Source of the DNA: Alphaproteobacteria bacterium
GTDB taxonomy: Bacteria; Pseudomonadota; Alphaproteobacteria; SP197
Reading direction: 5' to 3'
Assembly: GCA_965228895.1 (NCBI GenBank)
Contig: OZ245842.1
Location: 3,200,001 to 3,264,000 of the forward strand
Length of the DNA: 64,000 nucleotides
The position numbers and the translations under genes are program-made. The notes under the pieces were generated by a model, which saw only the letters and a list, made by a program, of their open reading frames with translations, was not told the DNA's origin and ran no database searches. Of this stretch, positions 9,030 through 13,315 are shown in pieces; positions within the stretch are counted from its first letter, which is position 1; the number at the start of each line of letters is the position of its first letter.

Positions 9030-10517
9030 ATGAGTTGCTTGGCTGGCGTGTCGACGATGGTGTGCCGTGTTCTTTTTGTTGGCGGCATGATCGCTATAGC
9101 CTTAGGCAGCCAAGCCTTCGCGGACGATCCGCCGCCCGGCGACCCCCTCGTCAATCCGCCGGAGTTCGAGATCATCAACGGTGCCGCGACGGGAACTCTG
9201 GTTGTCGACTGGGGTCCGGTCGAGGTCGGCGGCGAGGTGATCAACACCATCGCCTACAACAATGTGTACAGCCCGCCGCTGATCCGTGTGGCGCGCGGCG
9301 GTTCGATCGACCTGACGCTGACCAACAACCTGACCAACCAGTACACCAACATCCACTTTCACGGCATGCAGGTCTCGCCCAAGGGTGATTCCGACAACAT
9401 CTTCCGGCTGACCGACGCGGGCGAGACGAACCGCTATCACGTCGAGATCCCGCTTGCCCATCAGCCGGGTCTCTACTGGTACCACTCGCACGGTTATGAG
9501 GTGTCGCAGCGCCAGGTCATCGGTGGCTTGTCGGGCGGCATCATCGTCGAGGGCATCCTGGATCCCTTCCCCGAGCTGGCCGGCATCCGTGAACAGGTCA
9601 TGCTGCTGAAGAACACACGCACCCTGTTCGGCGATCTGCCGAACGTGTCGGTAACCGACTATCCGTCCTATCGCATGATCAACGGTCAGGTGAACCCGAC
9701 CATCGACATTCAGCCTGGTGAGCTGCAGTTCTGGCGCTTCGGCAATATCGCCGCCAATCAGTACTTCCACATCAAGCTGGACGGCCACCAGTTCCACATC
9801 ATCGCGCGCGACGGCAACCTGGGCACCGAGGTCCAGACGGTCGACGAACTGTTCATCGCGCCAGCCGGCCGTGTCGAGGTTCTGGTGCGCGGCGGCGATG
9901 CCGGCACCTACAAACTTCACATGTTCAGCACGACCACCGGACCCACAGGCGATCAGTACGAGCCGACAACGCTGGGCACCATGGTGGTGGCCGGCGAGCC
10001 CGTCGAAGGCCCGCCCCTGCCGGCCAACTTCCCGCCGGTGCGCGATCTGCGCGATCTGACGATCACCGAGGAACGCGAGATCGTCTTCTCAGAGGACGAC
10101 CGCTACTTCTACGTCAACGGCGCGAAGTTCGACTATGACGTCGTCAACACGGTGGTGCCGTTGGGCGCGATCGAGGTCTGGACGATCTCCAACCCGACCG
10201 AGGAGCTGCACGCCTTCCACATTCATCAGCTGGACTATCAGGTCATCGAGATCAACGGCGAGCCCGTGCCGTTCTATGGTCACCAGGACACGGTCTCGGT
10301 TCCCATACGCGGCGAGGTCAAGGTCATCATTCCGTTCGATGATCCCGTGATCCTGGGCAAGTTCGTCTATCACTGCCACATCCTGGAGCACGAGGACGGC
10401 GGCATGATGGCCGCGATCGAGGTGGTGCCGCCGGAAGCCTATGACACCGCGCTCTTCCTCTCGGACAAGGGCGGTTTCTGTAACGAGTGGAGCTACTGCG
10501 TTGCCTCGTCCGAGTAA
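9030..10517 (+). CDS. Multicopper oxidase (laccase-like), exported
   Basis: All four copper motifs: HFHG, WYHSH, HAFHIH, HCHILEHEDGGMM; true start may be a later ATG. Confidence 0.92.
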   Translation: MSCLAGVSTMVCRVLFVGGMIAIALGSQAFADDPPPGDPLVNPPEFEIINGAATGTLVVDWGPVEVGGEVINTIAYNNVYSPPLIRVARGGSIDLTLTNNLTNQYTNIHFHGMQVSPKGDSDNIFRLTDAGETNRYHVEIPLAHQPGLYWYHSHGYEVSQRQVIGGLSGGIIVEGILDPFPELAGIREQVMLLKNTRTLFGDLPNVSVTDYPSYRMINGQVNPTIDIQPGELQFWRFGNIAANQYFHIKLDGHQFHIIARDGNLGTEVQTVDELFIAPAGRVEVLVRGGDAGTYKLHMFSTTTGPTGDQYEPTTLGTMVVAGEPVEGPPLPANFPPVRDLRDLTITEEREIVFSEDDRYFYVNGAKFDYDVVNTVVPLGAIEVWTISNPTEELHAFHIHQLDYQVIEINGEPVPFYGHQDTVSVPIRGEVKVIIPFDDPVILGKFVYHCHILEHEDGGMMAAIEVVPPEAYDTALFLSDKGGFCNEWSYCVASSE

Positions 10518-11640
10518 GCGAGCGAGGGGCTTTTCCAGCGTCGCGCGCGCTGCCGCAACAATGGGCTTCCTGGCCGGTCCGGTCCCGACGACACCGGCCG
10601 TCGCCCAGGAAGGTGTCTATCCGAACGTTCAGGTCACGATCCCCGTCCAGATCCAGAATGACTGGTTGATACACCGCAGCGACGGGTCGGCCAGCAACTC
10701 GCTGAACGCGGACATCGAACCGGAGATCGACCTGCTGTTCTCGCAGGACCTGATCTTGACGACCCATGTCACCTTCGACCAACAGAACGATCCCGGCCCC
10801 GGTGATTTCTGGATCTTTCAGAACCAGGAACTCTATGTTGAAGAGCTTTACCTGCGCTACCGCCCGCAGCGGTACGACTTCCTGATCGGCAAGTTCGATG
10901 TGACCTTTGCGCAAGGTCCCAACCTGGCGCCCGGTATCTACGGCACCGATTTCATCGACGACTATCAGGTCAACGAGAACTGGGGCGGCCAGGTCGGCTA
11001 TCGCTTCGGCGGGACGGAAAGCGGCACGCATACGTTCCTCGCCTCAACGTTCTTTGCCGACACCACGGTCTTGAGCGAGGCGTTGATCACCGGGCGCCCG
11101 CGTCTTCGCCTGTCCGATGGCGGACCCGGCAATACCGAGGATTTTTCGTCCTTTGCCATCAACTATTACGCCACCGCCTTTCCAAACACGGGCCTGGAGT
11201 ACAGCCTGGGCTTCGTTCAGTTGGGCCGAGGCCAGGGCGATGTCTCGTCCGAACAGGGCTATACCGCCGGTCTGACCTGGTCGATCCCGCTGGTCGACAG
11301 CAACGAGGCGACACTTTCGAACAATTTCGTCGAGCTGCGGCCGTTCGCGGAGATCACCTATTTCGACAACGCGGGCGGTATGGAGGGCGCGGAGACAACC
11401 TATGTCTCGGCCTTCATGGAGCTGTTCTACGGCCGATGGGATATCTCGGCGGGCGGCACCTATCGCAGCAACGGCAACCATTCGGGCGGAACCGGCACCG
11501 ACGACTATCTGGTCACCGGCACGGTCGGCTACAACTTCGATGGCGGCCTGGGTCTTTGGGCAGGTTACCGCTTCCAAAAAGACAGCGGCGTGCGCAGCAA
11601 CGGACCGGGCGTCCAAATGACCTATCAACTTCAGTTCTAG
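10501..11640 (+). CDS. Outer-membrane beta-barrel protein
   Basis: Putative TTG start after GGAG, overlapping the oxidase stop; signal ending AVA|Q; aromatic/Gly-rich strands; C-terminal YQLQF. Confidence 0.75.
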   Translation: MPRPSKRARGFSSVARAAATMGFLAGPVPTTPAVAQEGVYPNVQVTIPVQIQNDWLIHRSDGSASNSLNADIEPEIDLLFSQDLILTTHVTFDQQNDPGPGDFWIFQNQELYVEELYLRYRPQRYDFLIGKFDVTFAQGPNLAPGIYGTDFIDDYQVNENWGGQVGYRFGGTESGTHTFLASTFFADTTVLSEALITGRPRLRLSDGGPGNTEDFSSFAINYYATAFPNTGLEYSLGFVQLGRGQGDVSSEQGYTAGLTWSIPLVDSNEATLSNNFVELRPFAEITYFDNAGGMEGAETTYVSAFMELFYGRWDISAGGTYRSNGNHSGGTGTDDYLVTGTVGYNFDGGLGLWAGYRFQKDSGVRSNGPGVQMTYQLQF

Positions 11641-11661
11641 TTCGGGCCTGCGCTAAGCCGC

Positions 11662-11690
11662 TTGCCTGCCGCGCGCCAAGCGGCTAGAAG
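11662..11690 (+). promoter_or_regulatory. Candidate sigma70 promoter for the yjhX leader
   Basis: TTGCCT-N17-TAGAAG. Confidence 0.4.
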
Positions 11691-11716
11691 GCCGGTCGTC
11701 TTTTTTCGGAGAGTTT

Positions 11717-11743
11717 ATGTCAGAGGCCGTTGTCATCGGCTGA
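11717..11743 (+). CDS. 8-codon leader peptide MSEAVVIG, toiL-like
   Basis: GGAGAG RBS; ATG TCA GAG GCC GTT GTC ATC GGC TGA; complementary to the downstream RBS region. Confidence 0.7.
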   Translation: MSEAVVIG

Positions 11744-11864
11744 CGGGTTTCCGTCCTTCGTAAACCCGTCGTCTTGAACCCCCGTCGTGGGCTTGGCCCG
11801 CGGGCCGCGTTTGCGTCCGCGCCCGGCGCGCGGTGGCGTTCCCGTATGACAATGGACCGAGATC

Positions 11865-12122
11865 GTGAATATTTCCCGCGACCAGCAGCGCGTGCTCCAC
11901 GCGCTGGCGCAAGGCGCTATCATTCGTTACGAGCGCAACCTGAAAGGCAAGATTGCCGAAATTGAATGTGTGACCCGTGAAGGCTGGCTGCTGAGCAACT
12001 GCACCATGGCGGTGTTCCGTGCGCTGAAGCGCAAGGGATTGATCGCCTCGCAGAACAGCCAGCCCTATCGTATCACGCGAAAGGGACTCAGTGCCGTCAG
12101 GCCCCAGGTCGACAACCGCTGA
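11865..12122 (+). CDS. yjhX: YjhX/TopAI family (UPF0386) toxin-like protein
   Basis: [52 protein letters not shown] family signature. Confidence 0.9.
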
Positions 12123-12219
12123 AGTGGCGTTTTGCGTTGAGGACGTCGCCGGCCGGGCGCAGTATTCGCCGGCGTCCGGCCGGCCACGTCTTACCCCAGC
12201 ACCACGAAGGGTCACCTTG

Positions 12220-12795
12220 ATGGCAGCAATCACTTCGCTTCACCCGGCGATCGACAAGGGGCTGACCACGGGCGATGCCAACTTTGCCGGCGGCACGCTC
12301 ACATGCCGCTGTGCGGACGACCCGGTCAAGGTGACGGTGGCAAGCCAGGTCGCGTACAACCATCTTTGCGGCTGCACGAAATGCTGGAAACCCGGCGGTG
12401 CGCTGTTTGCATTGATCGCCGTCGTGGCGCGCGATGATGTGGCGGTTACGGAGAACGGCGACAAACTCACCGTCGTCGACCCCGAGGCGTCTATCCAGCG
12501 CCATGCCTGCAAGGACTGCGGCGTCCACATGATTGGCCGCATCGAGGACGAGACGCACCCGTTCTTCGGCTTGGATTTCGTCCATACCGAACTTTCCGAC
12601 CAGACTGGCTGGCAGGAGCCACAGTTCGCGGCCTATGTGTCTTCGATCATCGAAGCGGGTACCGACCCCGACGACATGTCAGCTATCAGAAAGCGGCTCA
12701 ACGACGTTGGCCTTCCGACCTATGACTGTTTGTCGCCGCCGTTGATGGACGCGATCGCCGTACATGTTGTCAACGCCGCAAACGTTGTGCGTTAG
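12220..12795 (+). CDS. gfa: S-(hydroxymethyl)glutathione synthase
   Basis: [56 protein letters not shown]. Confidence 0.92.
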
Positions 12796-13315
12796 CTCAA
12801 AGCCCCGTTGGATTGCGCCAGCGCATATCGCGGCGCCGTGATCAACCGGATGACGGACGGACATCCCGGCAGTAACGTTGTGTATCTAGCGACGTTACTG
12901 ACCGTGAAAGCGGTAGACCGCTTGATCGACCGCGTCTGCCGCTCGCGTGTGAACCGGCCTGCGCGAGTTAGGCGGATAGTAAATCACGACAACCTCAACC
13001 AGCAATGCCAGTCACGTTACTTTGAATCACGGCCACTTTACTTCAAAACAAATAGTGGGTCACAACACGACACACGAAAGTGCTTCGTCTGTAATGAACC
13101 GTGATTTTCCAAGACTCCGGTCGGCGGCGCTTAATCGCGCCTGGTGTCCACGGGAAGGGGAAGCTGTGGGCCCGGCAAGTAGAGCACGTGAATGGTCCCG
13201 TCGCCGCCGAAATCGGGTGGCCGGCGGCTGGATCGGGTCCGGGCGCTTCATTCATCTCACTCCCCCAAACACCTTTAAAGCTGCACAAATGTGCCAACTT
13301 TGGAGGGTTGGGATT

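Follow-up and report, generated by a model that had tools for sequence, protein, structure and literature searches.

What might hold back a gene of a toxin family in a genome that places no antitoxin gene beside it? The question is raised by positions 11662 to 12122 of the 64,000-nucleotide stretch of alphaproteobacterial DNA analysed here (contig OZ245842.1, 3,200,001 to 3,264,000, forward strand; "the window" in what follows), where a yjhX gene, homologous to topAI of Escherichia coli, is preceded by a leader that carries a short upstream open reading frame (uORF). An earlier note, made from the letters of the window, had likened this leader to toiL, the uORF that governs topAI in E. coli. 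The comparisons presented here favour the same answer: the stretch is probably homologous to the toiL-topAI regulatory unit of E. coli, that is, a lock on yjhX that opens when a ribosome stalls on the uORF. The elements of the locus, with coordinates checked by reading positions 11400-12900, are the following.

11662..11690, + strand: candidate sigma-70-type promoter, inferred from TTGCCT (11662-11667), a 17-nt spacer and TAGAAG (11685-11690)
11708..11713, + strand: Shine-Dalgarno (SD) sequence GGAGAG of the uORF, 3 nt before its ATG, and also the 5' end of the closing helix; read from the sequence
11717..11743, + strand: toiL-like uORF MSEAVVIG, eight codons and stop; read from the sequence, with homologous short uORFs in relatives
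11741..11771, + strand: local hairpin whose 5' arm begins within the uORF stop codon; from the sequence and the predicted minimum-free-energy (MFE) structure
11776..11841, + strand: central leader stem or stems, G+C-rich and variable; from the MFE structure
11842..11876, + strand: anti-uORF, the 3' strand of the closing helix; from MFE pairing with 11708-11739
11865..12122, + strand: yjhX/topAI homologue with GTG start, 85 codons; Pfam PF09857 and NF010240

The gene at the end of this array is a YjhX gene, as the earlier note had stated: the product of the frame opened by GTG 11865 matches Pfam YjhX_toxin (PF09857) over all 85 positions (E 2.8e-40; 136.6 bits against a cut-off of 27) and NCBIfam NF010240 with 136.7 bits, it is 52% identical to E. 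coli TopAI, and its gene is single-copy in the 5.5-Mb genome. Over-production of TopAI kills E. coli, in which the protein inhibits topoisomerase I on DNA (PMC4666372); by homology, the YjhX of the window would be a topoisomerase-I inhibitor as well. The uORF (ATG TCA GAG GCC GTT GTC ATC GGC TGA) has its ATG 148 nt upstream of yjhX. Both the uORF with its ribosome-binding site (RBS) and two complementarities that the note had described are read directly from the DNA: CCGTTGTCAT within the uORF (11727-11736) is complementary to ATGACAATGG (11846-11855) with one G-U pair, and GACGGGTTT (11742-11750) forms with AAACCCGTC (11762-11770) a perfect 9-bp inverted repeat, to which one G-U pair is added in the hairpin.

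The first of these complementarities is also predicted in the MFE structure of 11690-11900 (-94.8 kcal/mol; z -2.90, with 1 of 200 shuffles equally good). This structure is dominated by one closing helix, in which 11708-11739, comprising the SD, the start codon and codons 4-8 of the uORF, are joined to 11842-11876, a strand on which yjhX has its weak SD region, its GTG start and codons 2-4; the uORF SD itself pairs with yjhX codons 3-4. Within the start region of yjhX (-15 to +3), 14 of 18 nt are predicted to pair with the SD and uORF, vs 8.7 when the 5' segment is shuffled. Such an arrangement might nevertheless be a chance reading frame combined with chance pairing in G+C-rich intergenic DNA, and the window taken by itself gives this reading some room: the duplex between codons 2-8 and positions -45 to -1 stays within chance (-22.1 vs -18.6 +/- 3.2 kcal/mol, z -1.08), and 44 of 300 dinucleotide shuffles match it. 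Since a ten-base complement is cheap in G+C-rich DNA, the claim must rest on comparison with relatives.

The experimentally studied relative is the toiL-topAI-yjhQP leader of E. coli (Baniulyte and Wade, eLife 2025; PMC12121999). In the model given there, a hairpin between toiL and the RBS prevents translation of topAI; it opens when ribosomes stall at one or another codon of toiL under antibiotics, of which at least five classes have this effect; and topAI that remains untranslated is subject to Rho termination inside the gene; induction depends on the uORF start codon, with a 12- to 110-fold loss without it, and ToiL residues 1-7 are conserved among carriers of topAI-yjhQP (PMC12121999). Read from the E. 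coli K-12 genome (NC_000913.3), toiL consists of the SD GAGG and ATG CTG GAG AAT GTA ATC ATC CGA TAA, encoding MLENVIIR, the sequence that the earlier note had given; its ATG lies 139 nt before topAI, and a hairpin starts at its last codon and stop. GTAATCATC stands opposite GATGATTA just 5' of topAI, and toiL codons 5-7 pair there.

The window and E. coli therefore share a YjhX/TopAI homologue behind an SD-led, eight-codon uORF at nearly the same distance (148 vs 139 nt), peptides identical at four of eight positions (M1, E3, V5, I7), a uORF that pairs with the ribosome-binding region of the gene (predicted in the window), and a hairpin that begins at the uORF stop; a single covariance model, termed R1 and described below, fits both leaders. 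They differ in several respects. The window gene is followed by gfa, without yjhQ or yjhP, and starts with GTG, whereas topAI starts with ATG; the uORF ends in -IG and UGA, as against -IR and UAA in E. coli; and the central stems of the window are G+C-rich. The window uORF also contains Ser and Ala codons, which toiL lacks, a possible reason given for the missing response of toiL to chloramphenicol (PMC12121999). Antibiotic induction, Rho termination and structural support from SHAPE (selective 2'-hydroxyl acylation analysed by primer extension) belong to the E. coli leader only.

YjhX genes are patchily distributed: matches occurred in 20 of the 401 genomes scanned from the class, in 36 of 401 from the phylum and in 6 of 33 from the order. 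The reference set comprised 51 loci with a tblastn match, including E. coli and two loci from genome contigs, the only two that a contig search with a single YjhX protein returned; these loci lack phylogenetic independence (L002 is identical to L050, and the window is included as L001). Among 300 genomes of a second proteobacterial class (centre G613), YjhX occurred in two, both already in the set, so that no new locus was gained. A short SD-led uORF was found in 49 of the 51 loci, in 48 of them 110-181 nt upstream of yjhX, generally with a GGAG-like SD as in the window; the two loci without it are L020, with an aberrant N-terminus, and L021, with just 34% identity. In the remaining locus (L030) the uORF MSEIVTG is located at about -290, and the leader (1731-2062, - strand) extends over 332 nt, with an insertion of about 150 nt in its variable centre. 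Eight codons are the most frequent uORF length among the 48 leaders (35), accompanied by seven (4), six (3), nine (1), ten (2), eleven (2) and fourteen (1). Under a strict, blind definition (ATG, with GGAG, GAGG or AGGA 4-12 nt upstream, 6-11 codons, at -190 to -100), the uORF was recovered in 38 of 49 reference loci vs 0.49 expected from dinucleotide shuffles, and with exactly eight codons in 30 of 49 vs 0.06 expected. A hairpin starting from the uORF stop codon was predicted in 31 of 48 leaders.

The encoded peptides fall into two types. The first includes MLENVIIR, MLEIVAIR, MLELVAGR, MSGIVVIR, MSEIALVA and the MSEAVVIG of the window; the second, with MSTYAQSR, MLNLSETR and MFTLSESR, belongs to two families with rhizobia among their members. 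Many leaders share the motif M-[SL]-E-[IN]-[VA], which is absent from the rhizobial clade; the earlier note's proposal that the architecture and an MxExVxI pattern persist in a distant lineage thus holds for the architecture, and for the pattern in many leaders outside the clade with MSTYAQSR- and MFTLSESR-type peptides. Constraints on the RNA could explain part of the motif. On the basis of these loci, the toiL-type arrangement is conserved together with yjhX across Alpha- and Gammaproteobacteria.

The pairing recurs along with the reading frame. In all 48 folded leaders the MFE structure joins the SD and uORF segment to the start region of yjhX; on average, 11.8 of 18 nt of the start region (-15 to +3) pair with the SD and uORF vs 4.9 with a shuffled 5' segment, and 47 of 48 leaders lie above their own control. 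Specificity was examined without an alignment by computing the duplexes of all uORFs, taken from codon 2 to the stop, with all start regions (-45 to -1) and centring rows and columns of the resulting matrix. Cognate duplexes averaged -18.0 vs -14.5 kcal/mol for non-cognate ones, and none of 20000 permutations reached the observed diagonal; with one leader per distinct peptide (39 leaders), the corresponding values were -18.5 and -14.6 kcal/mol, again with 0 of 20000 permutations. For a conventional view of covariation, the covariance model R1 was built from a MAFFT alignment of the leaders and the window's own helix; on the R1-fitted alignment of the reference set, 53.1% of cells held standard pairs vs 49.3% after shuffling (0 of 500 as high) and 35-47% with slid partners. 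R1 scored the window at 108 bits, E. coli at 73.5, Sinorhizobium meliloti at 64.2 and L030 at 27.5 bits (E 4e-4), of which the S. meliloti and L030 leaders stood outside the training alignment, with related leaders inside it. Over 151 whole genomes R1 returned nine matches, all of them yjhX leaders; since all nine are training loci, this result speaks for specificity and not as independent support.

A second, independent collection of loci was drawn from metagenomes, consisting of the best 80 of 550 relatives retrieved with an alignment of 47 YjhX proteins. R1 matched 75 of the 80 (E <= 0.01), all on the gene strand and ending 25 nt inside yjhX. In 67 of the 75 rows, the modelled uORF start coincided with an ATG that opens a frame of 5-14 codons, and the strict uORF definition was satisfied at 36 of the 75 loci vs 0.86 expected. 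Paired cells amounted to 55.4% vs 49.1% when shuffled (0 of 500) and 36-43% when slid, and the covariation score was 0.145 vs 0.100 for shuffles (0 of 500) and 0.07-0.09 for slid partners. The closest protein relative of the window among these best 80 of 550, L063 (75% identity), has the uORF MSEAVFIG. The prevailing uORF lengths are ten (26 loci), eight (23) and seven codons (12), and these three length classes may mark sub-families. A large subgroup within L064-L140 has ten-codon uORFs that end in -EARA or -EVRA, such as MSEIVFEARA and MLEIVVEARA, and a gut-metagenome subgroup has the uORF MLDTVIIG.

A chance origin of frame and pairing is contradicted by this record: leader and gene are conserved together in E. 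coli and in both separate collections of loci, the pairing is specific to cognate partners, and within the genus the leader is more conserved than its flanks; coincidence is barely credible as an explanation. What is demonstrated here, at the level of sequence, is the anatomy of a toiL homologue that has been conserved, and has co-varied, with yjhX.

As a caveat, several observations, beyond the unexceptional duplex of the window itself, weigh against the toiL-like lock. The peptide differs between clades, and uORF length varies, with seven, eight and ten codons all common. In the shuffle test 11 of 48 leaders had z > 0, mostly in the rhizobial clade with MSTYAQSR- or MF..SE.R-type peptides; the MFE structures of this clade pair the start region with the SD and start part of the uORF and not with codons 4-8. 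RNAalifold, applied to the MAFFT alignment of the 48 leaders, found 0 consensus pairs, a plain alignment being useless here because the register of the 3' strand differs between clades. Even on the R1-fitted alignments only 53-55% of cells pair, so that no single family-wide register exists and the formal signal of covariation is modest; R1, moreover, owes part of its score to the 25 conserved coding bases within it, which inflate weak scores. The covariation for which the earlier note had suggested a test is found above shuffles on model-fitted alignments, and it is missing from the plain one. Taken together, the comparisons suggest that the helix is conserved as a design, realized in clade-specific registers, and not as one alignable consensus.

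The arrangement suggests how the lock would work. The inferred promoter would produce an mRNA beginning about 20 nt before a well-initiated, eight-codon uORF. In the resting state, 11708-11739, with the SD, start codon and codons 4-8 of the uORF, would be paired with 11842-11876, and yjhX would go untranslated; ribosomes passing through so short a frame would open the helix only briefly. A ribosome held in place would cover essentially the whole 5' strand with its footprint and leave the yjhX start site free, so that YjhX would be made. The hold could occur at the start codon, within the uORF or at its stop, and could be caused by ribosome-targeting antibiotics or by other translation stress; secondary effects on the mRNA level, through Rho termination or stability, are possible. 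Stalling as the signal and antibiotics as inducers are carried over by homology from the E. coli work (PMC12121999), with strong backing from the comparisons.

A leader of about 150 nt that is this strongly structured (z -2.9) could instead be a metabolite or ion riboswitch, or the target of a bound protein, and the uORF would then be incidental. An Rfam search of 11000-13000 with E up to 10 gave eight chance-level matches, none of them over the leader, and hence no described RNA family covers it. The part between the uORF hairpin and the anti-uORF strand varies in sequence and length: the central stems (11776-11841) resist alignment across the family and vary even within the genus, where the rest of the leader is about 95% conserved, and L030 has its large insertion there; only the two ends are conserved. 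A riboswitch or protein-bound leader is highly improbable under these circumstances.

The toiL-like reading gains a physiological hint from S. meliloti. The sequence of the locus comes from strain Ak57, whose spacer to gatB (334 nt) is the same as in strain 2011; the locus contains CTTGAC-N17-CTAGAA, an AGGAG and the uORF MFHQSESR 146 nt before yjhX. In strain 2011 the gene annotated as "YjhX family toxin" (SM2011_RS21005) rose with a log2 fold change of +1.37 (2.6-fold; adjusted p 5.3e-7) 10 min after sub-inhibitory tetracycline (1.5 ug/ml), from raw counts of 98, 61 and 89 to 211, 243 and 365 (PMC12218461, supplementary file 6); this rise places the gene within the limits that the authors set for their 127 up-regulated genes. 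The increase in yjhX mRNA is consistent with the toiL model, as a hint; it is moderate, and general mRNA stabilisation by tetracycline is an alternative cause (PMC12218461), a further point to be set with those listed above. As a separate observation on this genome, yjhX and gatB of strain 2011 (NC_020528.1, about 1430605-1433196) diverge, and the next gene after gatB encodes a GNAT family acetyltransferase.

A simpler device would be a constitutive structural lock or ribosome decoy that keeps yjhX nearly silent at all times, with the uORF as a by-product or stand-by site. Sequestration of the start region, predicted in 48 of 48 leaders, would suit such a device, as would the poor start of yjhX: 57 of the 80 metagenome loci begin the gene with GTG, TTG or another non-ATG codon (TTG 32, GTG 24, ATG 23, one unclear), as the window does with GTG. 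Frequent non-ATG starts fit a second means of keeping YjhX low. An anti-RBS strand, however, need not be translated, and yet SD, ATG and a stop within 5-14 codons are retained in 49 of 51 reference loci and 67 of 75 metagenome rows; the frame is kept while nucleotides diverge, vs a chance expectation of about 1%. In addition, induction in E. coli depends on the uORF start codon, to the extent quoted above from PMC12121999, and S. meliloti yjhX mRNA increases with tetracycline (PMC12218461). A permanently closed lock is therefore regarded as unlikely.

An inducible lock could also respond to amino-acid supply, through hungry Val, Ile, Leu, Ala or Ser codons in the manner of classical leader peptides, and not to antibiotics. 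Val, Ile, Leu and Ala are abundant in uORF peptides such as MSEAVVIG, MLEIVAIR and MSEIV..., and Ser and Thr in those of another clade; since the helix should open whenever a ribosome stalls on the uORF, starvation could induce yjhX. Against this stand the lack of single-codon runs, a composition that depends on the clade, and the lack of linkage between yjhX and amino-acid synthesis; the hydrophobic codons may in part reflect the need to pair with the start region. Sensing of amino-acid supply is considered quite unlikely as the primary function, and it would form a special case of the stall-opened lock, not an alternative mechanism.

Leaders of the ermC/ermB, cat and vmlR type follow a related principle, in that stalling of a ribosome on a short uORF rearranges the leader, so that a downstream RBS becomes accessible; they precede resistance genes, switch between two alternative local hairpins, and rely on peptide-specific arrest by one drug class. 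The window differs by its single long-range helix between the uORF itself and the start site, and by an effector that is, by homology, a growth-arresting topoisomerase inhibitor. Closer at hand is the small open reading frame Mia-127 of Salmonella enterica, which precedes a yjhX homologue and is near-identical to ToiL (PMC12121999); it occupies the same relative place as the window uORF and is an enterobacterial toiL orthologue, and loci L025 (MLENVII) and L026 (MLENVIIR) may be of this kind. Within the Alphaproteobacteria, a DUF1127 gene of S. meliloti is subject to uORF-dependent attenuation that responds to sub-inhibitory tetracycline, for which transcription attenuation via an exposed C-rich element and a uORF of more than 20 codons is proposed (PMC12218461). 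That leader, described with the data set in which yjhX rises as well, resembles the window in being alphaproteobacterial and uORF-bearing, and differs in its longer uORF, the lack of start-site occlusion, and the unrelated leader and gene. Among the literature found, toiL is treated in PMC12121999 and listed in a review table (PMC12360218) only; YjhX, TopAI and toiL go unmentioned in an S. meliloti survey of upstream ribosome-binding sites (uRBS; PMC13285730) and in the main text of PMC12218461. Family-wide conservation, independence from yjhQ and alphaproteobacterial members were not found in print, and PMC12121999 may have aligned some non-enterobacterial leaders.

The promoter of the window is the element on which the earlier note fares less clearly. 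A consensus promoter scan did not call the TTGCCT/TAGAAG pair at 11662-11690; it is the best TTGACA/TATAAT-like pair within 90 nt 5' of the uORF, with a score of 8/12. In its favour, conservation among the three genomes of the genus starts exactly at CTTGCC, the candidate -35 element, with unrelated DNA upstream, and many relatives have TTGAC-like and -10-like pairs 20-35 nt 5' of the uORF, an observation made without a shuffle control; the CTTGAC-N17-CTAGAA of S. meliloti occupies the corresponding position. The position of the candidate promoter would place the transcription start near 11697-11700.

Compared with the TopAI-YjhQ type II toxin-antitoxin operon, the window has the toxin-family gene without a GNAT antitoxin gene immediately downstream: tblastn found no YjhQ or YjhP similarity in the window locus, and the next gene after yjhX is gfa. 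This is no peculiarity of the window. Downstream frames on the same strand, classified with Pfam at 49 reference loci, comprise seven GNATs (E. coli, L005, L013, L024, L027, L032, L043), four methyltransferases of the YjhP kind (L004, L025, L026, L029), four GFA proteins (the window and its genus), two ribosomal proteins S6, one ankyrin-repeat protein and one SnoaL-like protein; for the other 30, no family reached E <= 1e-5, and many of them probably do not represent genes. Weak GNAT similarity is present also at L018 and L021 (tblastn), and a YjhQ-like frame follows yjhX at two of the 70 metagenome loci that have at least 400 nt downstream. In the loci examined, yjhX without an adjacent GNAT is thus the usual state; and since yjhQ is seldom adjacent, the uORF goes with yjhX and not with the toxin-antitoxin operon. 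An adjacent antitoxin would be unnecessary, as the RNA lock would combine with the poor start codon to prevent production of YjhX. A genome-wide search for yjhQ, which the earlier note had suggested, yielded no adjacent copy and a best YjhQ-like frame about 449 kb from yjhX (G000:C1:2762751-2763242, L053 1459-2022; 32% identity, E 1.5e-10). This unlinked GNAT is 38-44% identical to GNATs that follow yjhX elsewhere, about as much as those are among themselves; it could be a trans-acting, YjhQ-like partner or merely another GNAT.

Downstream of yjhX, two further features are distinguished.

12137..12192, + strand: G+C-rich hairpin in the yjhX-gfa spacer, without a U-tract; conserved in the genus
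12220..12795, + strand: gfa, S-(hydroxymethyl)glutathione synthase; TIGR02820, 311.5 bits (cut-off 234.55)

The gfa of the window is the sole copy above the TIGR02820 cut-off in the genome. Similarity among the three genomes of the genus starts at 11661 in one relative and at 11707 in the other and extends to 12796, with about 80-82% identity across the block 11661-12796 and unrelated DNA on both sides. As similarity stops at both ends, leader, yjhX and gfa behave as one 1.1-kb block; the description of yjhX as a solo gene is thus right with respect to yjhQ and has to be qualified with respect to gfa, which may come under the same leader switch. The spacer hairpin was considered as a genomic repeat and rejected, being unique in the genome; it is a candidate terminator, processing site or stabiliser. 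Outside the genus, synthetic methanol-using E. coli was limited in growth by TopAI dosage, and a link between TopAI and methanol or formaldehyde assimilation is a speculation of the same source (PMC11695965), to be taken as a lead only.

A wider interpretation is offered tentatively and with considerable doubt: the uORF leader, and not the antitoxin, may be the ancestral and sufficient safety catch of YjhX, which across the Proteobacteria would act as a translation-stress-triggered brake on topoisomerase I, with yjhQ a late and local addition and with the switch, in the genus of the window, also heading the only gfa gene of the genome. If this were true, ribosome stress, for example from formaldehyde damage, would be tied to formaldehyde detoxification via gfa. 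So far toiL has been described for the topAI-yjhQP operon of E. coli and close relatives; the comparisons indicate that the combination of uORF and long-range helix accompanies yjhX, mostly in the absence of yjhQ, in Alphaproteobacteria, Gammaproteobacteria and environmental metagenomes. The E. coli case would become a definable, widespread RNA/uORF family, in which natural variation (seven, eight or ten codons; clade-specific peptides) could be used to probe multi-drug stall sensing, and the label "toxin-antitoxin" would be questionable for most YjhX family members. S. meliloti, with its leader and published tetracycline-dependent mRNA increase, offers a tractable alphaproteobacterial model, and the genome of the window gains a sound annotation for an otherwise unannotated regulatory element. 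At L012 and L019, from the same family of genomes, rpsF (ribosomal protein S6) lies directly after yjhX; a ribosomal protein operon would there lie immediately behind a translation-stress switch, a neighborhood that deserves attention.

The structure of the effector was also considered. A PDB sequence search returned no YjhX relative of solved structure. An AlphaFold model based on 47 sequences was confident (predicted local distance difference test 91.1, predicted template modelling score 0.79), and a Foldseek comparison of this model with the PDB gave nothing at E <= 0.001. In a wider structural search, MarR-type winged-helix domains came first, the best with a middling Z of 7.4 at a root-mean-square deviation of 2.9 over 70 residues; the model thus indicates a winged-helix-like arrangement, and such structural matches do not indicate function. 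Upstream of the leader, 9030-11640 contain a multicopper oxidase gene with three Cu-oxidase domains and a 399-codon frame with a weak DUF2490 match; as listed, the two frames overlap by 77 nt, and the second therefore probably has a later start.

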